Shown piece by piece: positions 5,456 through 36,619 of a stretch of DNA of 47,345 nt. Numbering within the stretch: position 1 is the first letter of the stretch; each line of letters begins with the position of its first letter. The notes beneath the pieces were generated by a model. The model searched no databases and was not told the DNA's origin. It was given only the letters and a program-made list of their open reading frames with translations. The position numbers and the translations under genes are program-made. This DNA comes from an uncultured Gammaproteobacteria bacterium. GTDB lineage: Bacteria > Patescibacteriota > Microgenomatia > CAYQLK01. The DNA is taken from contig CAYROP010000002.1 in NCBI GenBank assembly GCA_964426075.1, positions 1 to 47,345 on the forward strand. The letters are read 5' to 3'.

Positions 5456-5484
5456 TTGACTAACCAAATATTTATAGCTAAAAT
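5456..5484 (+). promoter_or_regulatory. Sigma70-type promoter of the GAPDH cassette
   Basis: TTGACT (5456-5461), 17-nt spacer, TAAAAT (5479-5484). Confidence 0.5.
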
Positions 5485-5540
5485 CCCAAACTGCCAACTA
5501 AGGCAAGAACCTTAACCAAAAGAAAGAAGGTAAATCAAAA

Positions 5541-6608
5541 ATGTCAGAACCCGTAAGGGTAGGCATCAATGGCTTCGGACGCATCGGCAGACTCGCTCTA
5601 CGTATTTTCGAAGCAAAGTACAAAGGCGTTCTCGAGGTCGTTGCCATTAACGACCTTTGGCCACCTGAAGTCCTCGCACACTACTTCGAGTTCGACAGCA
5701 TCTACCGCGCCTATCCCGGCACGGTCAGTGCAAATATCGCAACCGAAGGCGTCCGCGGCACGATCTGTGTCGATGGACGCAACATCGTCGTGTTCAACGA
5801 ACGCAACCCATCGAACATTCCCTGGTCAGAACTAGGTGTGGAAATCGTCATCGAAGCCTCAGGCTTTTTCACTGACGCCAACCTGGCTCGTGGCCACATC
5901 GACGGTGGTGGCGCCAAGAAGGTGCTAATCTCAGCACCAGCCAAGAACGAAGACATCACCGTTGTCCTTGGTGTCAACGATCTTCTGCTCCGCCCAGAAC
6001 ACGCAGTCATCAGCAACGCCAGCTGCACCACCAACGGCCTCAGCCCTCTGGCTCTGGTCTTGGAACAAAGCTTCGGAATCGAAGCAGGGATCCTCACCAC
6101 GATCCACTCCAAGACCGGCACACAAAGCCTGACCGACAGCCCGAAACCGGACTTTGGGGACGGCAGGGACGGTTCGACCAACATGGTACCGGGTGATACC
6201 GGCGCAGCCAAAGCCGTCGAACTCGTCATTCCCAGCCTGAAAGGCAAGTTCAAGGGTATTGCTGTCAGGGTTCCGACCGCAACGGTTTCCCTGATCGACT
6301 TCTCGGTCCTCCTTAACCGGGAAACGACCAACGAAGAAATCCGTGAAGTCATGTTGGCCGCAGCCAATGGACCACTTCAGGGTATCCTCGACGTCACCGA
6401 CAAGAGGCTGGCATCATCGGACTTCATCGGCAACAGCTTCTCCTCGATCTTCAGCTCAGTCAACACTCAAGTCATCGGCCGGCTGGTGAAAATCCTTAGC
6501 TGGTACGACAACGAGTGGGGATATGCCACCAGACTCTGCGATCTTGCCGCTCTGGTAGCTTCCATGCTGGTTGCTTCCATGCTGGAATCAGCCAAGCCGA
6601 ACAACTAG
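5541..6608 (+). CDS. gap: Glyceraldehyde-3-phosphate dehydrogenase, divergent type I; GC-rich compositional outlier
   Basis: NGFGRIGR NAD-binding motif, SNASCTTN active-site Cys, TTIHS His, TGAAKAV, and WYDNEWGY near the C-terminus. SD agaagg lies upstream. Confidence 0.9.
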   Translation: MSEPVRVGINGFGRIGRLALRIFEAKYKGVLEVVAINDLWPPEVLAHYFEFDSIYRAYPGTVSANIATEGVRGTICVDGRNIVVFNERNPSNIPWSELGVEIVIEASGFFTDANLARGHIDGGGAKKVLISAPAKNEDITVVLGVNDLLLRPEHAVISNASCTTNGLSPLALVLEQSFGIEAGILTTIHSKTGTQSLTDSPKPDFGDGRDGSTNMVPGDTGAAKAVELVIPSLKGKFKGIAVRVPTATVSLIDFSVLLNRETTNEEIREVMLAAANGPLQGILDVTDKRLASSDFIGNSFSSIFSSVNTQVIGRLVKILSWYDNEWGYATRLCDLAALVASMLVASMLESAKPNN

Positions 6609-6628
6609 ATCGGCTCAACTCCTAAAAA

Positions 6629-6673
6629 GCAGGGGATACTCATCTAACCAATGAGTGTCCGCCTGCTTTTTTT
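6629..6673 (+). terminator. Intrinsic terminator of gap
   Basis: Long hairpin gcaggggatactcat / atgagtgtccgcctgc followed by T7. Confidence 0.7.
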
Positions 6674-6741
6674 ATTTTCAACCCATAGCAATATTGACAA
6701 AGACTGTGAATTGTTCGAATATAAAACTATATCTAAACTAA

Positions 6742-7344
6742 ATGGAAAAAGAGTCTACTAGAACAAATGATTTTTCAGCTGTAGGAATACTTATTTCCTT
6801 TTTACTCGCGATTTGTCTACTATATTTTGCTCAATTTTTTATTAAAGATTTAAATAGTCTTTACAATGGCACACAACCAATCAGACCAAATTTTGAGAAA
6901 ATAAAACCTCAAATCCTTGATCGTAGTGGCAATGTCAACTTACCCAACCAAATACCTCAATCAAACGACAAAAACTTCACATACAATGGTGTTAGCTACA
7001 CTACATATACCGAAGCAAACGATGCTTTTGAAAAACAAGAACTTCTGCCTTACCAAAGCCGTAAACTAGTTATTTCCGCTCTTGTTAATATTCCACTCTT
7101 TGTTATTGCAACCGGACTATTTGTCTCATTGGGGCGCAAAAGAAGTTCTTATAGAGTTGTAACAGGGTCGTTTTTTGGCTCAATGTTCTTATCAATTACA
7201 ATTCTTTTAGTCGAACTAGCCTCAATGGTTTATCGTTATAATCAAAAAATCGCAACCTACGGCATTCTTAGTGTTTTAATTTTAGTTTTTGTTGTTACCA
7301 TCGTATTTATTCAAGATAGACACCGCAGACCAAAAGCTAAGTAG
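6742..7344 (+). CDS. Hypothetical membrane protein
   Basis: 200-aa ORF with AT-rich host-like composition, one N-terminal and about three C-terminal hydrophobic helices. No recognisable motif. Confidence 0.55.
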   Translation: MEKESTRTNDFSAVGILISFLLAICLLYFAQFFIKDLNSLYNGTQPIRPNFEKIKPQILDRSGNVNLPNQIPQSNDKNFTYNGVSYTTYTEANDAFEKQELLPYQSRKLVISALVNIPLFVIATGLFVSLGRKRSSYRVVTGSFFGSMFLSITILLVELASMVYRYNQKIATYGILSVLILVFVVTIVFIQDRHRRPKAK

Positions 7345-7464
7345 TCAGCAATAATCACAAACCTTGAAGCTTAATCAGATAGTCTGTTAAAATCACCTTT
7401 GAATTTCAATGAAAAAAATCTCATTGAATTACAAAATCTGGTTTTGAACAAGCTATGCTTGTCA

Positions 7465-7520
7465 AAACTTTCCTTTTAGGAAAAGGGATACTAAGGAAAA
7501 ATCTTGGTGTCTCCTTTAAC
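7465..7520 (+). promoter_or_regulatory. Conserved two-hairpin tRNA 5' leader motif, copy 1
   Basis: The sequence aaaactttccttttaggaaaagggatactaaggaaaaatcttggtgtctcctttaac ends 3 nt before tRNA-Phe. It is related to copies at 14841 and 19903. Confidence 0.4.
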
Positions 7521-7523
7521 AAA

Positions 7524-7596
7524 GCCGAGGTAGCAAAGTTGGTCAATGCACGCGTCTGAAAAACGCGCCATGTCAGTTCGATTCTGACCCTCGGCA
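7524..7596 (+). tRNA. tRNA-Phe (anticodon GAA), no encoded CCA
   Basis: Acceptor gccgagg/cctcggc, anticodon arm cgcgt-ctGAAaa-acgcg, T arm gtcag-ttcgatt-ctgac, discriminator a. The D stem is weak (3 bp). Confidence 0.85.
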
Positions 7597-7612
7597 CTTT
7601 AAAAAAAATGGT

Positions 7613-7670
7613 GAGGGAAGAACGAAAATCGAGTTTACGAGATTTTCCTTCTGACCCTCGGAACTTTTTT
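7613..7670 (+). terminator. Interrupted hairpin plus T6 downstream of tRNA-Phe; its 3' arm repeats the tRNA 3' end
   Basis: Pairs gaggg/ccctc, aag/ctt and gaaaatc/gattttc, then T6 at 7665-7670. It contains ctgaccctcgg, identical to tRNA positions 7584-7594. Confidence 0.45.
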
Positions 7671-7794
7671 ACTTGCAAACAATCCCATAGTTTTGATATT
7701 AACTAGATTGTGATAGAATTCCTTTCGGTTTAACGACCATAATTCGCACCATAACAATAAAGGGGACCAACCCGAAAGGACGAGTGGCACACGC

Positions 7795-8583
7795 ATGCCT
7801 CATGGTTATGCCGCCAGAAACATGCCCGACTTCGATCGAAGCAGGGTAGTATTTTCAACCCACGGCATCAAACACCTGCATCATCTCGGCGACTTCTACA
7901 ACGCCCTTTTCACCCGAGATCCGAACGAAACATTCGCCATCAAGGTCGACGCTGAAATTTCGGCCTTCGTCGGGGTCGGCGCAGTCATGACCAATGCGAA
8001 TCAGATTCGCTACGGCAACACTCCGCCAATTATGCTCGACATCAAGCTCGGCGATATGCCCTCCGTGGTCGCAAATGCCGCCAAGGCACTCAGTGAAGTC
8101 CACGAGCCAGTAGCCTTCACCGTCAATCCAAGCTCCGGCATGGCAAGTCTTCACGCCGCAGTCGAAAACCGCGGCGTCTGCCAGATCATCGTCTCGACGG
8201 TCAACACCTCACTCAGTGACGACGACTGCCGACTGATCTACAACCGTGACCGAACAAGCCAAGTCATGACTTTTGCAGAAATGGCTGCCGAAGCGGGCGC
8301 ACAAGGCGTAATTGTCGGCGGATGGGAAATCGAGCTACTAAAAAAACTCGGCATCCCTTCGTCGCTCAAAATCTACGGCGCAGGAATCCGGCCCACCTGG
8401 TTCACCAACCGTGGTGACAACTACCGTACCGTTACGCCAACAGAAGCCATCCTTCAAGGCGCAGACAAGATCATCGTCGGCGGACCGGTTCTCAACCAGA
8501 ACGACCCAGAAAGCAAGCGTAGCGCAGCTCTAAAAATCCTGCGCGAAGTCAACAAAGCAATCGGGGTTCCGGCCCTAACCTAA
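7795..8583 (+). CDS. Orotidine-5'-phosphate decarboxylase superfamily protein (PyrF-like, atypical); GC-rich outlier
   Basis: LDIKLGDM matches the DxKxxD motif. AGIRP...RGDNYRTVTPTEAILQGADKIIVGGPV parallels the PyrF C-terminal PGIRP..DQxR..TP..A..G.D..V.GRP block, but with Gly in place of the Arg. Confidence 0.7.
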   Translation: MPHGYAARNMPDFDRSRVVFSTHGIKHLHHLGDFYNALFTRDPNETFAIKVDAEISAFVGVGAVMTNANQIRYGNTPPIMLDIKLGDMPSVVANAAKALSEVHEPVAFTVNPSSGMASLHAAVENRGVCQIIVSTVNTSLSDDDCRLIYNRDRTSQVMTFAEMAAEAGAQGVIVGGWEIELLKKLGIPSSLKIYGAGIRPTWFTNRGDNYRTVTPTEAILQGADKIIVGGPVLNQNDPESKRSAALKILREVNKAIGVPALT

Positions 8584-8597
8584 ACCAACAAACCCTT

Positions 8598-8633
8598 GGA
8601 GCTATGTGCAATTTGCACCTCTAGCTCCTTTTT
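8598..8633 (+). terminator. Intrinsic terminator of the PyrF-like gene
   Basis: Stem ggagcta...tagctcc with an inner gtgca/tgcac pair, followed by T5. Confidence 0.7.
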
Positions 8634-8636
8634 CTT

Positions 8637-8665
8637 TTGCAATGCAAGTTTTTTTTCGCTAAAAT
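8637..8665 (+). promoter_or_regulatory. Sigma70-type promoter for the tRNA-Val/tRNA-Leu pair
   Basis: TTGCAA (8637-8642), 17-nt spacer, TAAAAT (8660-8665), about 17 nt before the tRNA 5' end. Confidence 0.5.
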
Positions 8666-8681
8666 CGCCTTTAGTCACCAA

Positions 8682-8755
8682 GGGCACCTAGCTCAGTTGG
8701 TTAGAGCACCCCGTTTACACCGGGGGGGTCGGGGGTTCGAATCCCTCGGTGCCCA
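8682..8755 (+). tRNA. tRNA-Val (anticodon UAC)
   Basis: Acceptor gggcacc/ggtgccc, D arm gctc-agttggtta-gagc, anticodon arm ccccg-ttTACac-cgggg, T arm ggggg-ttcgaat-ccctc. Confidence 0.9.
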
Positions 8756-8811
8756 CACAATTTGTATGATGAGATGTTTGAGGCAAAACCTATATATCTC
8801 AATAAACGCCC

Positions 8812-8895
8812 GGGCGAGTGGCGAAATTGGTAGACGCGCACGCCTTAGGAGCGTGTGGAGTTAAATCCTTGGAGGTTCGAGTCCTCTCTCGCCCA
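8812..8895 (+). tRNA. tRNA-Leu (anticodon UAG), long variable arm
   Basis: Acceptor gggcgag/ctcgccc, anticodon arm cacgc-ctTAGga-gcgtg, long variable arm, T arm ggagg-ttcgagt-cctct. Confidence 0.9.
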
Positions 8896-8966
8896 CAAAA
8901 AACCTACGTTGATAGTGTAAAATCAATAAAGTTACACTAAAAATATTCTTTGCTGCCCAAAAGATA

Positions 8967-10208
8967 ATGATCGAGCCAAAACTGTCCCAGTATATCCAAA
9001 ACCAACACACCCTAGGCACTTCGAACGAAACAATCAAGTCAATTTTATTAAAAGCCGGCTGGCAAGCAAAAGAAGTTGAACTCGCAATTAACGAACTGAC
9101 TCTTCCAGTCGAAAACCAGACCCAACCACGGTCCAAATCTTGGTTATTCAAACATCGCTACTACTCACTAGTTACATTTTTAATACTCACTATTCTCACT
9201 CTGGGTGGTATTTACTTTTATTTACAAACTACCGCCGATATCCGCAAACTAACCGATATTGTCTATAAGTTTTCACTTGCCAAAGATTTTGAAATTAACG
9301 GCGACATAGACTTAACTATTAAAAATGTTAATACATTCAGAGAACTGTCATTTGCTCAACTACGTAATGAAATAATAGAGCCTGCTAACTTTAACTACGG
9401 AATCATAAAGGCCAAATTCAGATCGCGCGTCGACACAAATACCAAAACTGCTGGAGATGATCCTTCACCATTCAATAATAGAAATGAAAAACTAATTGCT
9501 GATGTAACCATTGAAACTCATCTTAGAAACAACCCTCAAGCATTTTCCAAACAAACCTACTCATTTGAACTACTAAATATTAACCAATCAACCTATTTCA
9601 AGCTGTCAGAATATAGTGGCTTTGACAATGAAAAGGTAGCTAGTATTCGTAATCAGTGGCTCAAAATCAACCCGAAAATAATCCGCAGTTCGCTTAATAT
9701 TGCTACCAAAAACGACCTGACTGGCAACGAACAACCTGTTGCAGGTGTCACTGATGAACAAATACAAAAAACCCGCTTGCTACTTGCCAAAAATCCACCC
9801 TTTGACTTCATCAGTACAGGCGAAATCCAACCGCTACTTGAAAACATCGAAATCCAAAGATACCGCTTAAAACTTAATCAACAAAAAATTCAAACTATCC
9901 TTTCACAATCTAGAACAAATTTTGCCGATAACGATCTGGCTATTTCTATAACCAAACTGATAGAGGACTATGCAATTGAATTTTCCAACGCTTCATTCGA
10001 GATTTTAGCCGATACTATTACCAATCTACCCTACCGTCTTGTTGTAACACTTACTCCAGGTAGTTTCCCTGGGCAGTCAAAAATAGAGAATGCATTAATG
10101 GAGATTTCTTTTCAAAATTATCGCCGATCTTTCCCAACTACACCACCAGAAAATTATCTTGACCTTACAATTCCTAAAGAATCAACTTCTTCACCACAAT
10201 TACCCTAA
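8967..10208 (+). CDS. Hypothetical membrane-anchored protein
   Basis: 413-aa ORF with a short cytoplasmic N-domain, one TM helix (YYSLVTFLILTILTLGGIYFYL) and a large extracytoplasmic part. No recognisable motif. Confidence 0.55.
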   Translation: MIEPKLSQYIQNQHTLGTSNETIKSILLKAGWQAKEVELAINELTLPVENQTQPRSKSWLFKHRYYSLVTFLILTILTLGGIYFYLQTTADIRKLTDIVYKFSLAKDFEINGDIDLTIKNVNTFRELSFAQLRNEIIEPANFNYGIIKAKFRSRVDTNTKTAGDDPSPFNNRNEKLIADVTIETHLRNNPQAFSKQTYSFELLNINQSTYFKLSEYSGFDNEKVASIRNQWLKINPKIIRSSLNIATKNDLTGNEQPVAGVTDEQIQKTRLLLAKNPPFDFISTGEIQPLLENIEIQRYRLKLNQQKIQTILSQSRTNFADNDLAISITKLIEDYAIEFSNASFEILADTITNLPYRLVVTLTPGSFPGQSKIENALMEISFQNYRRSFPTTPPENYLDLTIPKESTSSPQLP

Positions 10209-10211
10209 AAA

Positions 10212-10943
10212 CTAATCATTACGAGATTTGAGTTGATCCTCCCAAGCTTTCCACTCAATCTCATCATCCAAATCAATAAACTCTCCCTTGTACCCCTTAA
10301 CCATTAAGATATTTTTAATAATCAAATCAGCCAGATGCGGATTTTTGGCCAAAATCGGTCCATGCAAATAGGTGCCAATTGCGTTATTTACCAAACATCC
10401 CTCCACATCAGACTTAAAATAGTTACCGTTACCAAACTCAACGTCCCCAAACGGCTCTGAAATTTTTGTTAGGGTGGTATAACCAGAATGATTTTCAAAA
10501 CCAACGATCTTTTTGGTTAGTCCTAATTTTGGATTTGGCTTAACCACGACATTTCCAACCAGCCTCACATTGCCAGCTTTAGTGCTAACTGGAAAAACCT
10601 TTAACCCTTCAAGCTTTTCGTTTCCAAATTCATAGTTTTGACCTAACAACTGATAACCTCCACACACAGCCAAAACCGGAACATTGCGTGTAACTATCTC
10701 TTTAAAAAGTACCTTTTTGTTTTTTAACAAATCACTTGCTGCAATTTTCTGGTTACTATCCTGACCTCCACCAAAAAAATAAAAATCAAATTCTTTTTCT
10801 CTTAACTTATAACCGACATCCACGGTTTCGATCCCCACATCAAATCCACGCATTTTTAATCGTTTTGACAACACCAACAAATTACCATCATCACCGTAAG
10901 TGTTCATTATTCTGCCGTACAAATGTGCTAGTCGTATTTTCAT
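10212..10943 (-). CDS. gatD: Lipid II isoglutaminyl synthase, glutamine amidotransferase subunit (CobQ/CobB-type GATase)
   Basis: AVCGGYQLLG nucleophile Cys and YLHGP His motifs, about 240 aa, downstream of a MurT-like gene. Confidence 0.8.
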   Translation of the reverse strand: MKIRLAHLYGRIMNTYGDDGNLLVLSKRLKMRGFDVGIETVDVGYKLREKEFDFYFFGGGQDSNQKIAASDLLKNKKVLFKEIVTRNVPVLAVCGGYQLLGQNYEFGNEKLEGLKVFPVSTKAGNVRLVGNVVVKPNPKLGLTKKIVGFENHSGYTTLTKISEPFGDVEFGNGNYFKSDVEGCLVNNAIGTYLHGPILAKNPHLADLIIKNILMVKGYKGEFIDLDDEIEWKAWEDQLKSRND

Positions 10944-11062
10944 TTTAAAAACCTACGATTGAAGTTTATATATTTGGATTTTAAAACAGGACGTAGTGAA
11001 AATTTATAAAATAACAAGCTGGCCGAAGTTATAAATAAATTTGAATGAGTAACTATTTTCAT
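10940..11062 (-). CDS. Possible 40-aa small ORF translationally coupled to gatD
   Basis: My own translation: MKIVTHSNLFITSASLLFYKFSLRPVLKSKYINFNRRFLK. Its TGA overlaps the gatD ATG (ATGA). It lies inside a repeated initiation-region module. Confidence 0.25.
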   Translation of the reverse strand: MKIVTHSNLFITSASLLFYKFSLRPVLKSKYINFNRRFLK

Positions 11063-11193
11063 TTTTTTAAACCTACATTAAACTTCTTATAAATAATCAA
11101 GGTTTTAAAAAAAGAATGTGTAGATAAAACTGAGATAAAATTTGTTTGAGGCAGAATTTTAGCGAATTTTAGCGAGCAATTATTTTCTTTCAT
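11059..11193 (-). CDS. Possible 44-aa small ORF downstream of murT
   Basis: My own translation: MKENNCSLKFAKILPQTNFISVLSTHSFFKTLIIYKKFNVGLKK. AGGAG lies 3 nt (aat) before the ATG. Its TGA overlaps the ATG of the next small ORF. Confidence 0.3.
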   Translation of the reverse strand: MKENNCSLKFAKILPQTNFISVLSTHSFFKTLIIYKKFNVGLKK

Positions 11194-11226
11194 ATTCTCC
11201 TAAATTAAACTTCTTATAAATAATAA

Positions 11227-12570: not shown

Positions 12571-12617
12571 ATCTAACTATTTTACATTTATTGGAATATT
12601 AACCTAAACTATTTTAC

Positions 12618-13345: not shown

Positions 13346-13374
13346 TTTACACGTGAAAAGACCCATAGTATAAT
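13346..13374 (+). promoter_or_regulatory. Sigma70-type promoter of the HD-domain cassette
   Basis: TTTACA (13346-13351), 17-nt spacer, TATAAT (13369-13374). Confidence 0.55.
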
Positions 13375-13408
13375 ATTGCAAAGTTCCTTCATAAGAATAG
13401 GAGTACGG

Positions 13409-14020
13409 ATGTCCCTCATCGACCGATGGACAGACCTTTGGGAAGCGATGAACTTTTCAAGTCCTCGGACTAACTTCATCGCACTCGTCAGCCGTTACGA
13501 AGATGGCAAACGCGCCTATCACAACATGAAACACATCCAGCACTGTCTCGATGAGCTAGACAAGGTCAGAGAACTGCTCGCCGACCCGCACGCAGCAGAA
13601 CTCGCGCTCTGGATGCATGATGTGATTTACGACCCCAAGCGAGCAGACAACGAAGAACGAAGCGCCGAGTTTGCTCTAAGGTGTCTGATCAGTTCCGGCG
13701 CAGCGCCTCAACTAGTGCTCAAAGTCGTCGCGCACATCCTGGCAACCAAACACCACCGTGTGATCACCAACGATCCCGACCAACCGTTCGTCCTCGACTG
13801 CGACATGGCCATCCTTGGCCAGCCCAATGAGGCCTTTGACCTCTACGACACCCAAATCGCTCAAGAATACGGTTTCGTTCCACAGGAGCGCTATCGCCAA
13901 GGTCGCAGCTCGGTTCTGCAAAACTTCGAGCGCCCGATCTTCAAAACTCCTTTCTTCCGCGACCTCTACGAAGAGGCGGCAGAACTAAACATCAAAAGAG
14001 CCATCCAAAGGCTCAGCTAA
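13409..14020 (+). CDS. HD-domain metal-dependent phosphohydrolase (COG4339-like); GC-rich outlier
   Basis: RAYHNMKH ... LALWMHDVIYDP gives an H...HD pattern. I chose the ATG at 13409 (SD aggag upstream) because the TTG at 13376 lies at or upstream of the predicted transcription start. Confidence 0.7.
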   Translation: MSLIDRWTDLWEAMNFSSPRTNFIALVSRYEDGKRAYHNMKHIQHCLDELDKVRELLADPHAAELALWMHDVIYDPKRADNEERSAEFALRCLISSGAAPQLVLKVVAHILATKHHRVITNDPDQPFVLDCDMAILGQPNEAFDLYDTQIAQEYGFVPQERYRQGRSSVLQNFERPIFKTPFFRDLYEEAAELNIKRAIQRLS

Positions 14021-14033
14021 CACCTCAGCAAAA

Positions 14034-14072
14034 AGCCGTAGCTGGACTAACCAGTCTACGGCTTCTTTTTTT
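14034..14072. terminator. Bidirectional intrinsic terminator between the HD gene and convergent tRNA-Leu(CAG)
   Basis: Stem agccgtagctgg / ccagtctacggct, flanked by an A-run on the left and a T-run on the right. Confidence 0.7.
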
Positions 14073-14073
14073 G

Positions 14074-14157: not shown

Positions 14158-14218
14158 AAATATAAATAAATTTCAATAACCACAAAATTCTATCAAAATA
14201 AATTTTTTCTTCCCTAAC

Positions 14219-14248
14219 TTGAAATAAACATACGACCTATAGTATAAT
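14219..14248 (+). promoter_or_regulatory. Sigma70-type promoter of the 145-aa unknown gene
   Basis: TTGAAA (14219-14224), 18-nt spacer, TATAAT (14243-14248). Confidence 0.5.
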
Positions 14249-14304
14249 TACTTAAAGTCCTTTAGGACTAAAGCACATTCTAAATTAAGAGGAGCAGGCT
14301 AGAG

Positions 14305-14742
14305 ATGAATATCGCATCCTTCGCGACCAGGCCAATCGGCGTGACCGGCACCCAGTACGACTGGACGGAATCAACCGAAACCCAGTACTTGGTAAAGGAA
14401 CGCCTCAGGATCGCAGGCGACGTCGCCAGCAACAGGATCGGACTCAGGGTCACTCTCACAACCGGCGAGCAGTTCGCTGGGCAAGAAGCCGTCAACCAGA
14501 TCCCGTATCTGGCCATCTGCTACAAACTCAGCAAAAACCCCGCCAAGCTCGTCGTCCGCGCCGTGATGCTTGATCCCAAGGTCGGACCAAAAGCCAGCTG
14601 CATCGCTGCCATCAACAAATGGCGCGCAATCGAGCAGCGCGATACTGAAAACGGTGAAATGGTCGAAGCCTACTACTTCTACCACGACACCTCGGTCGAC
14701 TGGATCAACTACGAACTGCCCCAGGCAGTACCCGCAGCGTAA
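14305..14742 (+). CDS. Hypothetical protein (145 aa), GC-rich outlier, no recognisable family
   Basis: ATG preceded by aagaggag. C-ending codon bias like the other GC-rich genes. Has its own promoter and terminator. Confidence 0.65.
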   Translation: MNIASFATRPIGVTGTQYDWTESTETQYLVKERLRIAGDVASNRIGLRVTLTTGEQFAGQEAVNQIPYLAICYKLSKNPAKLVVRAVMLDPKVGPKASCIAAINKWRAIEQRDTENGEMVEAYYFYHDTSVDWINYELPQAVPAA

Positions 14743-14765
14743 ACCATTCGCCACACCTTCGCTTT

Positions 14766-14794
14766 GGAGAGCCAGTAAAACGGCTCTCCTTTTT
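14766..14794 (+). terminator. Intrinsic terminator
   Basis: Stem ggagagcc / ggctctcc (8 bp), followed by T5. Confidence 0.7.
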
Positions 14795-14840: not shown

Positions 14841-14890
14841 AAGGATATGAAAAGAGGATTACTAAGGAGAAACCTTGGTGTTTCCTTAGA
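14841..14890 (+). promoter_or_regulatory. Conserved tRNA 5' leader motif, copy 2
   Basis: The sequence aaggatatgaaaagaggattactaaggagaaaccttggtgtttccttaga ends 5 nt before tRNA-Leu(GAG). Confidence 0.4.
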
Positions 14891-14895: not shown

Positions 14896-14979
14896 GGGCG
14901 AGTGGCGAAATTGGTAGACGCGCAGGCTTGAGGGGCTTGTGGAGTCAAATCCTTGGAGGTTCGAGTCCTCTCTCGCCCA
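14896..14979 (+). tRNA. tRNA-Leu (anticodon GAG)
   Basis: Anticodon arm caggc-ttGAGgg-gcttg. The scaffold is identical to those of the other tRNA-Leu genes. Confidence 0.9.
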
Positions 14980-15058
14980 CAAAACATTACCAACACTAAT
15001 TTGAGCACAATTTCTAAAAAATTTAGGGTAAACTTAAAATATTAACGAAAAACTTTTA

Positions 15059-19902: not shown

Positions 19903-19960
19903 AAAAACTTTCCTATTCTAGGAAAGGGAATATTAAGGGGAAACCTTGGTTGCCCCTTAA
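19903..19960 (+). promoter_or_regulatory. Conserved two-hairpin tRNA 5' leader motif, copy 3
   Basis: The sequence aaaaactttcctattctaggaaagggaatattaaggggaaaccttggttgccccttaa ends 8 nt before tRNA-Val(GAC). Confidence 0.4.
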
Positions 19961-21603: not shown

Positions 21604-21631
21604 TTGACTTTTCCTTACTTTTCCATAAACT
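21604..21631 (+). promoter_or_regulatory. Candidate promoter of the bicistronic GC-rich cassette
   Basis: TTGACT (21604-21609), 16-nt spacer, TAAACT (21626-21631). A 5' hairpin tagacc-tcaa-ggtcta follows. Confidence 0.35.
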
Positions 21632-21701
21632 ATAGGGCAACTTAGACCTCAAGGTCTATTTTGAACCTTAACTCAACCTAAGCAGACTGGAGTTTCCAAA
21701 A

Positions 21702-22343
21702 GTGTTTACCCTTCCTCTGGTGACTATCTCAGATAGCGACTGGCCAAACGACAACTCCGAACTTGGAGTCAACAACTACCGCCCGCACCCAGGCGACCTC
21801 AGCAGGTTTTTGGCTTTCCAAAGCCAAACCTACCTTGGAGCTGGGTATCACGAGCGGTACAACAATCCGATGCTCGCTGCACCAAGTAGCGAAGCAGCAG
21901 GTGGCACCATCTACTTCCACAACGACATTCGTCGTGAAGACCTTGCCGGAGTACTCCGCGCACTCGATATCAAAGACCCCCCTGGGGCTCCGAAAAAGTT
22001 CATCGTCTATTCGGCCACCAGCCACAAGCCTGGCGAAGACCAATACCTCAAACAACTCAGGTTCGTCAGCCACTTCGCAATGATTTATGGCTTCCACGCC
22101 GTCAAAGAACGCGAAGAAGCCGGACTTCCAACTCAAGAGCTCACGCTGGAGGAAATCATCTGGCTTTTCATCCAGAATCAACGCGAAGAGTGGGGAACCA
22201 GCTTTACCTCGCCCAAACTCGATCGCCTCTTCGGTGGTGACGGCTGGAATGCCAGAGAAGAACTCTCATTCGGCCTTCAGGTCGAATCCGACTACAACCG
22301 CGTCTATCGTCTCTGGAGTAGGGCATGGCTCGTCCACAAGTAA
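21702..22343 (+). CDS. Hypothetical protein (213 aa), GC-rich outlier, no recognisable family
   Basis: GTG start preceded by ctggag. Codon bias matches the other GC-rich genes. Overlaps the downstream HD gene by 19 nt. Confidence 0.6.
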   Translation: MFTLPLVTISDSDWPNDNSELGVNNYRPHPGDLSRFLAFQSQTYLGAGYHERYNNPMLAAPSSEAAGGTIYFHNDIRREDLAGVLRALDIKDPPGAPKKFIVYSATSHKPGEDQYLKQLRFVSHFAMIYGFHAVKEREEAGLPTQELTLEEIIWLFIQNQREEWGTSFTSPKLDRLFGGDGWNAREELSFGLQVESDYNRVYRLWSRAWLVHK

Positions 22344-22894
22344 AAGGTGTCGACACAACCAACTACCCAAGCTTTGATGAGCTGTTTAGTCTCATCGAAG
22401 AACCTCTTCAGGCTAGCCTAAGGGAACAACACTCCGTATGGCTACCACTGTTCAATGCTTCTCAAGGAGCAAGACACAACCACCACAGCTGGCATCCATT
22501 CGGCTACCTCGACCACGTTCAAGAATGCATGGTTTTGGCCGTCTCGCTCTACCAGCACCTTAGCCTCACCAGACCCCTGGATTTCACTCTCAGTTCAGCG
22601 CTAGCTGTTCTGTACCTCCACGACATCGAAAAACCTTTCCGCTACGTCAGAGCCGAACCCAACCTCGAAACCAAAGATCAGAGAAAAAAGTTTCGGCGCG
22701 AGTTCGTCCACAAGTGGGGAATTCCACTAAGCCCAGCCGAAATCCGCGCACTCGACCTCGTTGAAGGAGAAAACGACGAGTACTCGCCCAACGAAAGAAT
22801 CATGAAGCCCCTTGTCGCATTCTGCCACGCTTGCGACACCATGTCCGCACGCATTTGGTTCGACTTTGGCATTAGCCGAGTTAAAACCAAATAA
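22325..22894 (+). CDS. HD-domain phosphohydrolase-like protein (189 aa), GC-rich outlier
   Basis: LDHVQEC ... LAVLYLHDIEKPF ... CHACDTMSAR gives an H...HD...D pattern. SD ggag lies upstream of the ATG. Confidence 0.6.
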   Translation: MARPQVKGVDTTNYPSFDELFSLIEEPLQASLREQHSVWLPLFNASQGARHNHHSWHPFGYLDHVQECMVLAVSLYQHLSLTRPLDFTLSSALAVLYLHDIEKPFRYVRAEPNLETKDQRKKFRREFVHKWGIPLSPAEIRALDLVEGENDEYSPNERIMKPLVAFCHACDTMSARIWFDFGISRVKTK

Positions 22895-22906
22895 CTAACT
22901 TCAACC

Positions 22907-22940
22907 AGACCCGCTTTTTACTAGAAAAGCGGGTCTTTTT
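22907..22940 (+). terminator. Intrinsic terminator
   Basis: Stem agacccgctttt / aaaagcgggtct (12 bp), followed by a T-run. Confidence 0.75.
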
Positions 22941-22977
22941 CATATCTCTCCACGCTTTAGGCTTTTGTTCTGCTAAA

Positions 22978-29278: not shown

Positions 29279-29320
29279 CTCTAGGATTTTTTTATCTCAA
29301 CAACCTTCGACTAAATACTC

Positions 29321-29349
29321 TTGACAAACTAATAACTATAGGGTATAAT
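29321..29349 (+). promoter_or_regulatory. Consensus sigma70 promoter of the ORF-free GC-rich unit
   Basis: TTGACA (29321-29326), exactly 17-nt spacer, TATAAT (29344-29349). Confidence 0.6.
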
Positions 29350-29355
29350 CATCAC

Positions 29356-30098
29356 AATAAGCAGTGTAACATCTGCTTGTCCGCTCTTTCATTTTATTGG
29401 AGGTAGAGACATGAGGCCGCCAAATCCTTCTGGTCTGTAAAAAGCCAATAGAAGGTGGCCGAGGACTCCATTTTCGTTTCGTGGCCCACTCAGGGAAATC
29501 CGCAAGGCGAGATACCTACCCGGGGAGAATAAACCCTCTGCGCGTAGTACCGCCCTGCCAAGCCAGAATTCGCCTATGGTTACTCCGCAAGAAAACACGC
29601 GGTAAATACCTAAGGCAGATAAAGGAGCACGACTACATATGGATGTCTGATTCTGTCGGCTGTTTAGCTTTGTCCTAAGATAATGCCAAGAATAGGCTAG
29701 TCGAAGGAAAAGTGGATCAGCCCCTCAAAAGAGCCCGCGAACGAACGGGCGCAGGTGGCCCCCAAAATCGCCACGAGTTCGATCTCGTGGAACGAATAGG
29801 GCGCCAACCTCGAGATCTCGGCTTCCACCTTCCGTGTAGCCCAGAATGTTGTTTTCTCTCTTACTTTAAGGGAAACGACACAAAGGCAATCCCATACACA
29901 CGGTAAAGGTCAAAGAAAGGAGATTGGCCATGCAGCGCCGGTCCTGCCAGGACCAGTAAGTCGCGACACGGTATAACGCCCCATCGCTGCCCAGCGTTAC
30001 AGGGACTAAAGAAAAGTCGTAACTTCTGGCGAAGCGACAAAAAATAATTTCGCCACCACATCCTCAAGGCCGGAGCCCACAAAGCTCCGGCCTTTTTT
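29356..30098 (+). ncRNA. Candidate large structured non-coding RNA (about 740 nt), class unknown
   Basis: Bounded by a consensus promoter and a strong terminator. GC-rich. No ORF longer than 73 aa in any frame. Dense local and nested helices. No RNase P or tmRNA signature recognised by eye. Confidence 0.45.
30068..30098 (+). terminator. Intrinsic terminator of the ORF-free unit
   Basis: Stem ggccggagc / gctccggcc (9 bp), followed by T6. Confidence 0.75.
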
Positions 30099-30144
30099 CT
30101 TATCTAAATATTTTGTTTAACTAGAAAAAAGGGGAAGACAGACA

Positions 30145-32778: not shown

Positions 32779-32834
32779 ATCAATAAGTACTAATATATTT
32801 GGAATTAGCCTGAATTTATGTCAAAATAAAATCC

Positions 32835-33962
32835 ATGCAAAGCCTAGACGAAGTCTTAACTCGCGGTGTCGACAAAATCTATCCAGACACCTCATCACTC
32901 AAAACCGCACTTGAAACAAAAAAACTTCGCATCTACTGCGGATTCGACCCAACAGGCAACACTCTCCATTTAGGCCATGTCGTCAACCTCCTCAAACTTC
33001 GCGCATTCCACCTGCTTGGCCATGATGTTTTTGTAGTAATTGGTACTTTTACGGCTCGCATTGGCGATCCAGACAAGGCAGAGACAAGAGCAAAACTAAC
33101 AATTGAACAGGTCAAAGAGAACGCTTCCGACTATATCAGACAAATAAGACTCTTCTTCCCGGAAGTTGACGATAATCACATCAAATACAACTCCGAATGG
33201 CTCGACAAAATGGACCTGTCCGAAATGCTCGAATACCTTAGTTTTTTCACACATGCCCAAATCATCGAACGAGATCTTTTTCAAGAAAGACTAAAAAAAG
33301 GCTCTTCACTGGCAATGTCCGAATTGATGTATCCAATTATGCAGGCGATAGACAGTGACAAACTTAACATCGATCTTGAACTTGGCGGAGCTGATCAAAC
33401 CTTCAATATGTTAATCGGCAAGGAACTGATGCGTAAAAAAAATAATAAAGAAAAATTCGTACTTACCAATCGATTATTAGTTGACGAAAAAGGCGAAAAG
33501 GCAGGCAAAACCACAGGCAATATGATTGCCATCTCTGATTCTCCAAAAGCAATTTGGGACAAAATATTACAACTTCCTAGAGACTTAATTAAACCTTACA
33601 TGGAAGGTGCGACTGATTTAGACAAAGAAAGAATCGATCAACTAACTTCAGATCTTACAAACAGCGCCAACATTAACAAAACCTTAACAGAGCTTGCCAA
33701 CTACTTTAACGAAAAAATTCACAACCAAAAACCGACCAACTTAACAACTGAATCTGTTGCCAAAGTTAAAAATACCCCAAATCAAACTTTGCTTGATATA
33801 GCCATCGAATCAAACCTTTTTTCAAGTAACTCAGAAGCTAAAAACAGAATTTCCGAAGGGGTATTGGTTGGCGATAAAAAAATTACAGACTTCAACTATC
33901 AACCAGAAAACAATGAGAATGAAATTTATTTTGGAAAAAAGAATAAAGTTATAAGAGAATGA
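32835..33962 (+). CDS. tyrS: Tyrosyl-tRNA synthetase
   Basis: Class I HIGH-type motif (TLHLGH), a KMSKS-equivalent KAGKTTGN, and a C-terminal S4-like segment (SNSEAKNRISEGVLVGDKKI). Confidence 0.8.
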   Translation: MQSLDEVLTRGVDKIYPDTSSLKTALETKKLRIYCGFDPTGNTLHLGHVVNLLKLRAFHLLGHDVFVVIGTFTARIGDPDKAETRAKLTIEQVKENASDYIRQIRLFFPEVDDNHIKYNSEWLDKMDLSEMLEYLSFFTHAQIIERDLFQERLKKGSSLAMSELMYPIMQAIDSDKLNIDLELGGADQTFNMLIGKELMRKKNNKEKFVLTNRLLVDEKGEKAGKTTGNMIAISDSPKAIWDKILQLPRDLIKPYMEGATDLDKERIDQLTSDLTNSANINKTLTELANYFNEKIHNQKPTNLTTESVAKVKNTPNQTLLDIAIESNLFSSNSEAKNRISEGVLVGDKKITDFNYQPENNENEIYFGKKNKVIRE

Positions 33963-34096
33963 GAAAAATAACCGTCAAACCCCGCAAACTACTTCCACGC
34001 AAAAAACACCTTAAACTAGCTGCAAAAATTTTAGCTCTAATCGCCGGAATAATTATTATTTTGTCCTCGATTCTCTTACCGCTAGCATACTCTTAG
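33959..34096 (+). CDS. Possible 45-aa tail-anchored small membrane protein, coupled to tyrS
   Basis: My own translation: MRKITVKPRKLLPRKKHLKLAAKILALIAGIIIILSSILLPLAYS. ATGA overlap with the tyrS stop. Confidence 0.3.
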   Translation: MRKITVKPRKLLPRKKHLKLAAKILALIAGIIIILSSILLPLAYS

Positions 34097-34131
34097 CTTT
34101 TGCCTTTAGCCCTTATAATTCTTAAGTAATT

Positions 34132-36138
34132 ATGCAACTCTCTGATTCTGTCGCGACAGTCTCTGGTATTGGTAATAAAAGTGCTGACAAACTAAGTAGA
34201 CTTAAAATCTTTACTGTTCGAGATCTATTATTCCATTTACCAAAAAAATACAACGACTTTTCCAAAACAATCGCTCTTTACGAGTTCGACACCCATCTAA
34301 ATGAAGAAATAACCACTCGTGCAACCGTTATCAATAAGGTTTTCCTAAGAGCTAGAACTGGTCGTAATCTAACTGCCGTGACTGTCTATGACGGCAAGGT
34401 TCGTAAGACTTTTATGTTTTTTGGTCCTCCATATATAACTAGCGACCTCAAAAAAAATCAGTCTTATTATTTCTTTGGCAAGCTAACCGCTTACCGCAAT
34501 CAGGTTTCAATTACTAACCCTGGCTTTACCCCAATTGAAGAGCAGGCTTCAAAATTTTCAACTATTTATCCCTTAACTGCAGGTCTAACGAACAAATTTT
34601 TTACCAAAAATATTAACAAAATCCTTAACTCAGACATTAATTTTTCCAAACTCGATTTTATCAAGAACTACTTAGACGCTAAAACTTTAGACCTTTATCA
34701 ATCTTTAGAAACTATTCACAACCCTAACGACTTAAGCTTAATCGAAAATGCCAAAAAGAGACTGGCAATCGACGAAGTTGTCTTAGTCCGCCTTGCTAAC
34801 AGCTTACGACGCAAAAAATGGCAGAAAAAACTACAAACTAATAAGTACAAAAACTTTCCGGTTGAAAATATTCTCAAAAACCTACACCTCACCTTGACCA
34901 ATGACCAACTACAAGCTTTAGACGACATCGTTTGTGATTTCAAAAAATCAGAACCTGCCAATCGCGTAATTCAAGGTGATGTAGGCTCAGGCAAAACTAT
35001 TGTCGCCGGTATCGCCGGAGCAGTAACTGCAAGCAACAATTTACAAACGATCTTACTTGCCCCAACCGAAATCCTCGCCAATCAGCATCTAATCTCACTA
35101 CAAAAATTCTTTCCAAGCCTTGATATTGGCATATTTACTGGTTATAAAAAAATCTGGGGCAAAGATATTACAGTTGGCACCCATGCTTTACTTGAAAAAA
35201 AGGCATTGGAACACTTTAAGAAAAACAAGGTGGGACTTGTCGTAGTTGACGAACAACACCGCTTTGGCGTCAATCAAAGATCCAAGATATTTGGCCTTGG
35301 CGCGCGTAAAAATATTTATCCTCATTTTTTATCACTTACTGCCACACCAATTCCCAGAACAATTGCACTAACTATTTATGGCGATGTTGACCTTAGCCAA
35401 ATCAAATCATTCCCCAAAGGCCACAGACAGGTTACCAGCCATATTTTAACTTCCAATCAAAAACCCAAAGCCTACAATTTCATTGAAAGCGAACTACAAA
35501 AAGGCAATAGCGCATTATTTATTGCGCCAATAATTGAAGAGTCAGAGACCCTACAGGGAGAAATCGAATCAGTTAAAAAATTATTCTTAGAGGTTAATAA
35601 ATATTTCAAAAATAAAAAAGTATTTTTACTTCACGGCAAACTCAAATCAACTGAGAAAGAGCAAATTTTAGCCGATTTTGCCAATAACCCTGGCACAATT
35701 CTTGTCTCAACTCCAGTTGTTGAGGTTGGAATCGATATTCCTGATCTTTCGATTCTGGTTATTAGTTCCTCAGAAAGATTTGGTCTATCTCAACTTCACC
35801 AGCTAAGAGGTCGTATCGGCAGAAAAGGGCAGAAAGCATATTGTTTCCTGTTTCACTCACAAGACAAAACAAACTCTACTCGCCTTAAACATTTTATCGC
35901 CGAACACGATGGCGGCAAACTTGCCTTATTAGATCTCAAAGTTAGAGGAGCAGGGGAAACATACGGTTATCTACAACACGGCAAAGGTAATTTTAAAATC
36001 GCCGATCTTTCTTCGATCGATGAAATAAAAAAAGCCTCTAATATAGCTGACCAAATACTTTTAGCTGATCCAGATTTGACTAATCCATACATCAAAGAAT
36101 ACTTACAATCGTTTGCTACTCCAGATCCAATCGACTAG
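34132..36138 (+). CDS. recG: ATP-dependent DNA helicase RecG
   Basis: N-terminal wedge/OB region; helicase motifs GDVGSGKT, DEQHRFG, SLTATPIPRT and QLHQLRGRIGR. Confidence 0.85.
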   Translation: MQLSDSVATVSGIGNKSADKLSRLKIFTVRDLLFHLPKKYNDFSKTIALYEFDTHLNEEITTRATVINKVFLRARTGRNLTAVTVYDGKVRKTFMFFGPPYITSDLKKNQSYYFFGKLTAYRNQVSITNPGFTPIEEQASKFSTIYPLTAGLTNKFFTKNINKILNSDINFSKLDFIKNYLDAKTLDLYQSLETIHNPNDLSLIENAKKRLAIDEVVLVRLANSLRRKKWQKKLQTNKYKNFPVENILKNLHLTLTNDQLQALDDIVCDFKKSEPANRVIQGDVGSGKTIVAGIAGAVTASNNLQTILLAPTEILANQHLISLQKFFPSLDIGIFTGYKKIWGKDITVGTHALLEKKALEHFKKNKVGLVVVDEQHRFGVNQRSKIFGLGARKNIYPHFLSLTATPIPRTIALTIYGDVDLSQIKSFPKGHRQVTSHILTSNQKPKAYNFIESELQKGNSALFIAPIIEESETLQGEIESVKKLFLEVNKYFKNKKVFLLHGKLKSTEKEQILADFANNPGTILVSTPVVEVGIDIPDLSILVISSSERFGLSQLHQLRGRIGRKGQKAYCFLFHSQDKTNSTRLKHFIAEHDGGKLALLDLKVRGAGETYGYLQHGKGNFKIADLSSIDEIKKASNIADQILLADPDLTNPYIKEYLQSFATPDPID

Positions 36139-36157
36139 TTATTTATAACCTCTAGTA

Positions 36158-36186
36158 TTGATTATTTTATATTGTTGAATTAAAAT
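36158..36186 (+). promoter_or_regulatory. Sigma70-type promoter of the 116-aa unknown gene
   Basis: TTGATT (36158-36163), 17-nt spacer, TAAAAT (36181-36186). A 5' hairpin atttcc-aac-ggaaat follows. Confidence 0.5.
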
Positions 36187-36222
36187 TTCCAACGGAAATC
36201 GCACTCGCAAAGGAACTTTAAA

Positions 36223-36573
36223 TTGTCCAAGACCAAAAAAAGTAAAAAGGGTGGAAAAAAGGTTAAGGAGCAAAGGGTAGAGACTCCCACTATCGCAGAA
36301 GAGCCCACTGCCCTCCGCCCAACCCCACCTCGAGGTCCAGGCCTTGATCTCTCAAAGGTCACCAATTCCACACCTGATGTTCGGGATCTAGACAGAGAAC
36401 TGCGATTCTGTCTGGAACAGCCGAACCCCAGAGACGCCGAATGCGTTCGACTGCTTGTCGGGCACGTAGTAAGCAACAATCTGCAAGTTCTCGAACAAAA
36501 AAGTCATCTAGGCGAAGCCAACAAAGCCCTTCTTGGCGATGCCATTGCAACCCTCCGCAGACTCATCGCTTGA
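36223..36573 (+). CDS. Hypothetical protein (116 aa), Lys-rich N-terminus then GC-rich body, no recognisable family
   Basis: TTG start 9 nt after aaagga. There is no in-frame ATG near the 5' end. Has its own promoter and terminator. Confidence 0.5.
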   Translation: MSKTKKSKKGGKKVKEQRVETPTIAEEPTALRPTPPRGPGLDLSKVTNSTPDVRDLDRELRFCLEQPNPRDAECVRLLVGHVVSNNLQVLEQKSHLGEANKALLGDAIATLRRLIA

Positions 36574-36582
36574 TACAAACCC

Positions 36583-36619
36583 TCCCCCGTAAATCATAAA
36601 AGTTTGCGGGGGATTTTTT
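36583..36619 (+). terminator. Intrinsic terminator
   Basis: Stem tcccccgtaaa / tttgcggggga, followed by T6. Confidence 0.7.

Follow-up and report, generated by a model that had tools for sequence, protein, structure and literature searches.

Ancient GC-rich expression cassettes that appear to keep a compositional equilibrium of their own in an AT-rich Patescibacteria genome

The stretch of DNA analysed here, referred to as the window, is the full 47,345 nucleotides (nt) of the complete contig CAYROP010000002.1 (assembly GCA_964426075.1, forward strand), deposited under an uncultured Gammaproteobacteria bacterium and placed by GTDB in the Patescibacteriota (Microgenomatia; CAYQLK01). Seven GC-rich transcription units are scattered through it in a housekeeping context (thrS, infC, rplT, pheST, murT and tRNA genes). 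Six of these are protein-coding cassettes, named gap (5456–6668), PyrF-like (7693–8638), hd1 (13346–14072), u145 (14219–14794), the bicistronic u213+hd2 (21604–22941) and u116 (36158–36619), and the seventh is an RNA gene without a long open reading frame (ORF; 29321–30098). Comparison with relatives shows the units to be autonomous, ancient, syntenic, dispensable, recombining and at a compositional equilibrium separate from that of their surroundings. In our judgement there is about an even chance that they are old, vertically inherited, moron-like chromosomal cassettes whose GC content is upheld by recombination-linked bias, by selection on transcripts, or by both.

The compositional contrast is sharp. 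A sliding GC profile of the window (mean 0.39) contains seven peaks of 0.50–0.58 at the seven units, in agreement with an earlier note on this DNA that had singled them out, and each gene's third-codon-position GC (GC3) gives the same picture. All seven units lie on the plus strand and have a GC content of 0.51–0.57, compared with about 0.35–0.40 in their neighbours. GC and GC3 are 0.56 and 0.67 in the gap coding sequence (CDS), 0.55 and 0.63 in PyrF-like, 0.53 and 0.63 in hd1, 0.57 and 0.75 in u145, 0.54 and 0.62 in u213, 0.51 and 0.57 in hd2, and 0.52 and 0.47 in u116; neighbouring genes, including infC and rplT (0.32), have a GC3 of 0.22–0.38. First and second codon positions (GC1 and GC2) are also elevated in the island genes, which encode fewer lysines and more arginines, and GC3 exceeds both in six of the seven island proteins. 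For example, a recount matched the figures given previously for gap (14 Lys and 17 Arg) and for the GT2 gene (30 Lys and 12 Arg). The junctions of gap and PyrF-like are 100% identical in eight independent assemblies, so the seven units are no assembly artefact; together with synteny in relatives, this rules out a chimeric assembly.

Two aspects of their arrangement proved less telling than first thought. The shared plus-strand orientation is real, but about 74% of neighbouring genes are likewise on the plus strand, and seven out of seven is therefore weak evidence (p about 0.12). Four units, gap, PyrF-like, hd1 and u145, lie within 300 nt of a tRNA gene, rather than the five originally counted.

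Named homologues of PheT, at about 40% identity, all belong to Microgenomates-group Patescibacteria (Woesebacteria, Gottesmanbacteria and Shapirobacteria), and the host was assigned to that group from them. Syntenic relatives were recovered through homologues of u145, hd1 and PheT and sorted into clades by their neighbouring genes; about 20 kb was read for each relative, which sets the scope of all comparisons described here. Clade A comprises the window, L173 and L175/176/177, clade B comprises L169 and L171/172/178, and clades C and D are represented by L179 and L180, respectively, with the PheT of L180 57% identical to that of the window. A metagenome scan with MurT was of no use for synteny, the best match among those listed being 37% identical.

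The units occupy orthologous sites in relatives spanning the four clades and are GC-rich there also. The RNA unit is present in all four clades, u213+hd2 in clades A, C and D, u116 in clades A, B and D, PyrF-like, hd1 and u145 in clades A and B (for these three, in every relative whose contig covers the site), and gap in clade A, including L173 and L175. Divergence between clades A and B is comparable for island genes and their neighbours. On these comparisons, the units are older than the split of at least four clades.

Where a unit is missing, the pattern resembles loss. In clade B, the genes that flank gap and those that flank u213+hd2 adjoin each other. The absence of u213+hd2 from this clade is read as a loss because the cassette is present in clades A, C and D. 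For gap, the CDS and terminator are missing in clade B, and L171 retains a promoter and 5' hairpin near-identical to those of clade A, fused to the promoter of the next gene; L169 keeps a decayed relic of the gap promoter. The remnant in L171 points to a deletion of the CDS and terminator, at a site for which there is no outgroup. Similarly, the absence of u116 from L179 points to a loss, since clades A, B and D have the gene.

These observations bear directly on the origin favoured in the earlier note, namely foreign DNA subsequently refitted with host-type promoters. The sharp compositional contrast, the absence of two units from some relatives and the four units that adjoin tRNA genes would all be expected of recent arrivals. 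However, synteny and GC richness of the units extend over as many as four clades, their composition is at an equilibrium of its own (see below), and missing units were lost, in one case with a promoter relic left behind. Conserved synteny within the host lineage, named at the time as part of what would refute this origin, was largely found, and the promoters are conserved together with the cassettes, including in a second, diverged u213 cassette. True lineage-specific insertions are AT-rich: at 643–2037 and 16610–17489 of L175, beside tRNA-Gly and tRNA-Val, there are lineage-specific genes (464 amino acids (aa); 106 and 184 aa) with a GC content of 0.27–0.37, which indicates that tRNA-adjacent sites do take up or keep variable genes, but AT-rich ones. 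As noted before, there is no sign of mobility genes: ORF and Pfam scans of the window found no integrase or transposase, and a repeat search of the window found no flanking repeats at the unit borders. A viral or phage source was also considered and rejected, as a scan of a viral contig collection with the u213, hd2 and PyrF-like proteins returned no relatives. A single recent sweep of the whole 47-kb region is excluded, because neighbouring proteins are only 57–92% identical. Recent foreign origin is thus the least credible of the explanations considered here.

That the GC-rich state is maintained can be seen at synonymous sites. Between clades A and B, four-fold degenerate sites are 73–86% randomised in the islands and 88% in the background. 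GC at these sites (GC4) is 0.56–0.70 for islands in every lineage, and 0.31–0.58 for the background; in L180, background GC4 has risen to the island value and the contrast is gone. Substitutions polarised within clade A, by a parsimony that is noisy at about 50% synonymous identity, number 75 from GC to AT and 62 from AT to GC in the islands, corresponding to an equilibrium GC4 of 0.56 (present value 0.60), as against 126 and 144 in plus-strand neighbours, corresponding to 0.39 (present value 0.36). The GC-rich state is therefore a maintained equilibrium, at a GC4 of about 0.56–0.6 whatever the GC content of the host genome, and not the fading mark of an import.

An older transfer has to be weighed against the same data. 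Here, GC-rich donors such as Chloroflexota or Actinomycetota would have passed the genes to the family ancestor, and composition would still be drifting towards that of the host. Among the matches listed, the nearest outside homologues of gap (47–56% identity) come mostly from Chloroflexota and Actinomycetota, with one from a Saccharibacterium (50%), and those of hd1 (35–49%) come from diverse phyla including Caldilineaceae (Chloroflexota); amino-acid usage has also moved towards GC-rich codons. Against this, synonymous sites have largely turned over with GC4 unchanged in all lineages, and changes in the two directions are near balance at an equilibrium of 0.56. Island third positions share the resident excess of C over G of plus-strand genes, indicating long residence on that strand, whereas the outside gap homologues mostly have more third-position G (0.33–0.93 in purine-ending NNR codons, compared with 0.34 in the islands; the closest of the matches listed, L009, is similar at 0.33). 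Furthermore, u145 has no outside homologue, the outside identities of the others are low, and no donor was identified. Incomplete amelioration is consequently an improbable account of the composition, while an ancient transfer into the family ancestor is conceivable for gap or hd1.

The strand skew itself runs through the region. The plus strand of the window has a negative GC skew over its entire length, and plus-strand genes are C-rich and G-poor at third positions (C 0.35–0.61 in pyrimidine-ending NNY codons, G 0.03–0.24 in NNR codons), with the reverse in minus-strand genes (0.12–0.21 and 0.34–0.46).

The same third positions bear on translational selection, under which the units would be the most highly expressed genes, rich in optimal C-ending codons. 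C makes up about 46–50% of island four-fold sites, GAPDH is usually abundant, and the promoters and ribosome-binding sites are strong. However, the odds of GC in the islands are raised about 3.5–4-fold alike for NNY and NNR codons (NNY C 0.77 and NNR G 0.34, against background values of about 0.45 and 0.13), such that G-ending codons have gained as much as C-ending ones, and the surplus of C is what plus-strand genes of the region ordinarily show. GC1, GC2 and amino-acid usage are shifted too, and island proteins evolve fast. The genes rplT, rpmF and infC, with NNY C of 0.42 and NNR G of 0.16, are indistinguishable from the plus-strand background; together with the equal shift of the two codon classes, this argues against translational selection, to which we assign only a very small probability. 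The earlier note had likewise judged codon selection for high expression to be insufficient. It had also named a way in which its own reading could fail, namely ribosomal proteins sharing the island composition, and here these genes have the composition of the background.

The units are also set apart by their architecture. Promoters were scanned against 12 consensus positions, and transcript starts are predicted from the matches. The best promoter matches of the region lie at the starts of the units and its top-ranked terminators at their ends, bearing out the description of the units as autonomous expression cassettes. Matches amount to 12 of 12 positions at 29321 (the RNA unit), 11 at 13346 and 14219, 10 at 5456, and nine at 21604 and 36158; the PyrF-like promoter was missed by the scan and, read directly, is of the extended −10 type (7693–7719). 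This ranking agrees with the near-consensus promoters reported previously, among which those of PyrF-like and 21604 were already considered weaker. The terminators of all seven units are strong, as had also been recognised, with folding energies of −17 to −28 kcal/mol.

Folding likewise supports the small hairpins that had been seen just after the start in five units, where they are clear at the predicted transcript start. Over their initial 30 nt, predicted cassette transcripts have a median folding energy of −5.4 kcal/mol, versus −0.15 kcal/mol in ten housekeeping transcripts. Between lineages, the structure of the 5' hairpins is kept and their sequence diverges; that of u145, for instance, is present in every lineage, each time with a different sequence. 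The 5' untranslated regions (UTRs) of the cassettes have a GC content of only 0.33–0.43.

Promoter sequences, in turn, are tightly conserved. Five lineages share one hd1 promoter sequence over about 29 nt, TAAACTATAGGGCA is retained in the promoters of u213 from clades A, C and D, and TATAGGGTATAAT in those of the RNA unit from four of five lineages examined, which span clades A, C and D; L178, representing clade B, has the variant TATAGGTTACAAT. Most housekeeping promoters in the window show either a TGn extended −10 or no YATAG-type element. By this comparison, the promoters are part of the cassettes and have been kept together with them. A T7-like promoter, read by a single-subunit polymerase, was considered for the motif CTATAGGG and rejected as the primary reading, as canonical −35 and −10 elements stand at the correct spacing, the motif sits at a variable offset and a polymerase of this kind is not in view. 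Each unit would seem to be built for independent expression, with a strong sigma-70-type promoter carrying YATAG, a 5' stem-loop, a good ribosome-binding site and a strong intrinsic terminator, and the stem-loop and terminator probably shield both ends of the RNA.

Such a design invites an explanation by selection on transcripts, in which RNAs are kept GC-rich for stability or nuclease resistance, the 5' stem-loop and terminator block exonucleases, and the GC-rich body avoids AU-rich endonuclease sites. GC richness would in that case be adaptive, a trait of long-lived messages as a class. The GC-rich zone fits the transcription unit, RNA gene included; the 5' stem-loops keep their structure while their sequences diverge; every terminator is strong, the promoters are tightly constrained and composition is at its own equilibrium. 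AT-rich trimers across codon junctions are mildly depleted beyond the prediction from codon usage. However, no motif is categorically avoided, and avoidance of a specific nuclease site was discarded as an explanation because no k-mer is categorically depleted. In addition, the presumably highly expressed rplT, rpmF and infC lack the island composition, the 5'UTRs remain at 0.33–0.43 GC, island proteins evolve faster than their neighbours rather than slower, and a recombination tract and a tree conflict are left unexplained. As the sole cause, selection on transcripts is possible but doubtful, with perhaps half the plausibility of the explanation we favour, alongside which it may act jointly.

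Evidence for recombination comes from three of the cassettes. The clearest case is a tract at 13378–13514 on the plus strand, covering the 5'UTR and codons 1–36 of hd1, in which 12 differences over 137 bp separate the window from a strain that is 99.8–100% identical over about 8.5 kb of flanks. Overall, 12 of the 19 single-nucleotide polymorphisms (SNPs) found over 9.27 kb sit in the 791-bp hd1 cassette (binomial p = 4e-9). The tract has seven synonymous and three nonsynonymous changes plus two in the UTR, and although it cannot be polarised, the cluster is what a short stretch imported from a diverged allele leaves behind. Contigs of the same strain are identical to the window and hence uninformative on polymorphism. 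The PyrF-like tree conflicts with the host tree, the protein being 83% identical to clade B and 67% to L173/L175, and four-fold sites agree.

In L179, a second cassette of the u213 family is found at 4479–5280, with a plus-strand ORF at 4576–5214 (212 aa, GC 0.55) whose product is 49–56% identical to all other u213 proteins. The cassette has its own copy of the u213 promoter, and its 31-nt terminator matches that of the resident hd2 at every position, indicating that cassettes of this design are duplicated or imported as promoter-to-terminator units. The public gene call at this locus, 219 aa on the minus strand, was rejected as an antisense artefact over the plus-strand u213 ORF. Taken together, the comparisons indicate that units are lost by clean deletion and are exchanged or overwritten through homologous recombination between lineages.

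Recombination-linked GC bias is favoured because recombination is detected in three cassettes and the islands show an even GC shift that does not depend on optimal codons, a pattern also reported for recombining bacterial genes, which have a higher GC3 irrespective of optimal codons (Lassalle et al. 2015, PMC4450053). The maintaining force would most likely be GC-biased gene conversion in units with unusually frequent recombination, with DNA taken up via a type IV pilus and competence machinery and with recombination anchored in conserved flanks such as promoters, terminators and tRNA genes. In Patescibacteria, pili and competence genes are common and most detected transfers take place among Patescibacteria themselves (PMC12455944). 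Compared with L173 and L175, island proteins are 63–84% identical and neighbouring proteins 66–98% (most at least 82%), with equal synonymous divergence in both; biased fixation would be expected to yield such rapid protein change in the direction of GC-rich amino acids. Selection favouring transcripts that are GC-rich and long-lived may reinforce this bias, as the effect size and its coincidence with transcription units suggest.

Several points weigh against this interpretation. Direct signals of recombination come from hd1, PyrF-like and u213 only. Synonymous sites of hd1, u213 and hd2 mostly track the host tree, and u145 has no SNPs at all relative to the near-identical strain. At about 0.3, the GC3 gap seems to exceed by far the differences usually put down to GC-biased conversion in bacteria. 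The extent of the GC-rich zone is that of the transcription unit, which a pure recombination effect does not predict unless the conserved flanks bound the tracts. Transcript starts, expression levels and RNA stability are predictions, the polarisation is noisy as stated, and the comparisons are regional rather than genome-wide.

A bolder version of the favoured explanation would be a pool of integrase-free "chromosomal morons" kept by one lineage of the candidate phyla radiation (CPR) and alike in promoter design (YATAG and 5' stem-loop). Related genomes would swap, duplicate and delete them by natural transformation and homologous recombination, with anchors in the conserved promoters, the terminators and nearby tRNA genes, and frequent conversion would give the units a GC set-point some 25–30 points above that of an AT-drifting genome. 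We regard this as speculative, and slightly less probable than selection on transcripts. If true, such a pool would represent a new kind of gene-cassette system and a natural within-genome experiment on bacterial GC content.

Of relevance to DNA uptake, a type IV pilus/pseudopilin cluster lies on the minus strand of the window (39616–47295), with PilM-like, PilN/O-like and several prepilin-type N-terminal proteins. The GC bump at 46241–46620 within it was considered as a further cassette and dismissed, since it reflects Ala/Gly-rich pilin codons (GC3 0.34).

The unit described earlier as an ORF-free, RNA-like unit at 29356–30098 gains support from promoter, folding and covariation data. Its consensus promoter (29321–29349) is the sole perfect match of its region and its terminator (30066–30098) is top-ranked; the predicted transcript extends over about 29356–30098 and begins with a hairpin (about 29357–29380). 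The plus strand contains no ORF longer than 65 aa, and the corresponding interval has no called gene in four relatives. The RNA folds better than shuffled sequences (minimum free energy z-score −4.9). Its 3' module (about 29925–30098, terminator included) is conserved in all clades, over about 175–230 nt overall and about 175 nt in the window. In this module, 12 of 38 pairs are compensatory among five sequences, with changes on both sides. Covariation reaches 0.326, compared with 0.163 in shuffles (0 of 500 reach the observed value) and 0.04–0.18 for slid partners; it is supportive rather than final, because there are five sequences and the structure was derived from those five. The RNA is shorter in L179 and L180, whose promoters are placed about 300 nt further downstream.

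No family could be assigned to this RNA. At gathering scores, Rfam 15 recovers only tRNAs in the window and seven relatives, and scans at E-values up to 10 return nothing relevant in the window, L179 or L180. RNase P was considered, as the short version in L180 looks alike by eye, and was abandoned because the permissive Rfam scans yield no match to RNase P, tmRNA, SRP or 6S RNA. Overall, the data support a conserved structured RNA of 0.4–0.75 kb without an Rfam family. Base pairing offers an ordinary structural explanation for the GC richness of this particular unit.

The protein-coding units are diverse, and a comparison of the island proteins with each other shows that they are not mutual paralogues. 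There were no hits to the PADLOC defence library. The gap cassette has a promoter at 5456–5484 (TTGACT-17-TAAAAT, preceded by TTATAG), a hairpin at about 5492–5505 and a terminator at about 6624–6668. Its CDS (5541–6608, plus strand) encodes a type I GAPDH of 355 aa, with 104 bits to Gp_dh_N and 168 bits to Gp_dh_C in Pfam and a score marginally below the cut-off of TIGR01534 (365.0 vs 367.2).

In the PyrF-like cassette, a structured 5'UTR separates the promoter from the CDS (7795–8583, plus strand; 262 aa), and the terminator is at 8598–8638. The protein scores 64 bits against the Pfam OMPdecase model (cut-off 27, E 1.9e-17), far under the cut-off of NCBIfam equivalogs (92 vs 193), and matches orotidine 5'-monophosphate (OMP) decarboxylases in the PDB at 7e-14; the motif LDIKLGD (DxKxxD) can be read directly. 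These matches place it, as a divergent representative, within the OMP decarboxylase family.

Two genes had been labelled as HD genes, and this holds for the first more firmly than for the second. The hd1 CDS (13409–14020, plus strand; 203 aa) encodes a probable HD-superfamily phosphohydrolase according to a PHROG phosphohydrolase family (E 1.9e-22) and to homologues named as such, with no match in a Pfam scan. Its promoter is at 13346–13374 (TTTACA-17-TATAAT, preceded by CCCATAG) and its terminator (14035–14072, −21.6 kcal/mol) abuts tRNA-Leu(CAG). For hd2 (22325–22894, plus strand), which overlaps u213 by 19 nt, the label rests only on an aligned H...HD motif: there is no Pfam or PDB match, the hhalign probability is 1.5%, and a single-sequence structure model is unusable (predicted local distance difference test score, pLDDT, 41).

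The u213+hd2 cassette starts with a promoter at 21604–21631 (TTGACT-16-TAAACT) followed by ATAGGGCA and a TAGACC...GGTCTA hairpin, and ends with a terminator at 22907–22941. The first gene, u213 (21702–22343, plus strand; 213 aa), belongs to a family of about 190 (192) representative clusters, some members of which are fused to HEAT repeats, the sole fusions. An AlphaFold2 model built from the family alignment is confident (pLDDT 87.6), but the PDB offers no fold neighbour for it (best E 0.44), and sequence comparison with solved structures and Pfam gave no match.

The remaining two proteins are small. The u145 CDS (14305–14742, plus strand; 145 aa) is preceded by a promoter at 14219–14248 (TTGAAA-18-TATAAT, with CCTATAG before it) and an AGTCC...GGACT hairpin and followed by a terminator at 14766–14794. 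Its product is a lineage-restricted orphan: among 5.8 billion proteins, only three clusters were found and no homologue outside its own lineage. The u116 CDS (36223–36573, plus strand) has a TTG start and encodes 116 aa, in which a Lys-rich tail at the N terminus is joined to a conserved domain of about 65 aa at the C terminus; its promoter is at 36158–36186 (TTGATT-17-TAAAAT) and its terminator at 36583–36619. Its conservation in L177, L178 and L180 and its coding-type substitution pattern argue that it is a real small protein. Immediately 3' of it, rpmF (L32; 36623–36851) has background composition and a strong promoter of its own (TTGACT-17-TATAAT with TG, 36623–36651); it falls below the 90-aa limit of the ORF list.

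Further observations concern the genes within and around the units. Long minus-strand ORFs lie antisense inside GC-rich genes (5711–6367, 14371–14754, 21729–22181 and 36180–36479) and are by-products of GC richness; the gene caller used for L175/L176 picked such an ORF in place of u145. Four tRNA genes have in common a conserved hairpin 7–10 nt upstream, about 33 nt long and close to GGAWTACTAAGGRGAAACCTTGGTGYYYCCTTA. It is found at 7485–7517 (Phe-GAA), 8781–8811 (Leu-TAG), 14856–14888 (Leu-GAG) and 19927–19959 (Val-GAC), and may be a shared pre-tRNA leader or processing signal. With their leaders, the tRNA-Leu genes at 8812–8896 and 14896–14980 are 83% identical over 120 nt, and several public assemblies of the strain break at 8892, inside the first of them.

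In general, compositional islands are routinely read as recent transfer. Here, they are old, syntenic genes at their own equilibrium, and the default reading would mislead. Two gene classes in one genome and on one strand, with equilibrium GC4 values of about 0.56 and 0.39, provide a test of mutation bias versus conversion versus selection, and this test case lies in the CPR, a group thought to depend on DNA uptake. By-products of the analysis include a structured RNA without a known family and, in u213, a widespread protein family with a confident predicted fold and no solved relative. The combination of promoter and 5' stem-loop may also help in understanding gene expression in uncultured Patescibacteria.

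How do these units compare with known systems? In the model of Lawrence and Ochman, compositionally atypical islets reportedly arise by horizontal transfer and are then ameliorated. The units share the sharp contrast in GC and amino-acid usage, the patchy distribution and the proximity to tRNA genes, but they do not decay towards host composition, follow the resident strand skew, lack integrases and measure only 0.5–1.3 kb. Integron cassettes are also small modules that are gained, lost or duplicated at a locus. They are usually promoterless, end in attC and need an integrase, whereas the units are dispersed and have their own promoter and terminator, no integrase is present, and attC-like repeats were not found.

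At the transcript level, the aprE and ermC leaders of Gram-positive bacteria combine a 5' stem-loop with a strong ribosome-binding site and terminator, guarding the RNA against 5'-end-dependent decay. The cassettes likewise pair a stem-loop at or within a few nt of the 5' end with a strong ribosome-binding site and finish in a strong terminator, although a function for the stem-loop is suggested here by structural conservation only. The RNA unit recalls OLE, GOLLD, ROOL, HEARO and raiA, which are large, GC-rich structured non-coding RNAs in AT-rich genomes; it is similarly GC-rich and intergenic, possesses a promoter and terminator of its own and shows both structural conservation and covariation, but matches none of them in Rfam 15, even at permissive thresholds. 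Genes under GC-biased conversion (PMC4450053) resemble the units in their recombination signals and in a uniform GC shift that is strongest at third positions, while the shift of the islands differs in being confined to discrete transcription units and in extending to amino-acid usage.

The closest parallel is with the morons ("more DNA") of lambdoid and Mu-like phages, single genes or small operons which have their own promoter and terminator, lie between genes that are adjacent in related genomes and deviate in composition, and whose mechanism of gain is unknown, without recombinase or att sites (PMC4378225). The units, too, are flanked by a promoter and terminator of their own, differ in composition from adjacent genes and lack recombinase or att sites, and both gap and u213+hd2 lie between genes that are adjacent in relatives, with the polarity here being one of loss. 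Unlike morons, they sit in a bacterial housekeeping stretch, the three proteins tested have no relatives among viral contigs, and the units are ancient and syntenic, with differences that amount to deletions or replacements and a composition at equilibrium. Lying outside any phage, they would thus work like morons without being morons.

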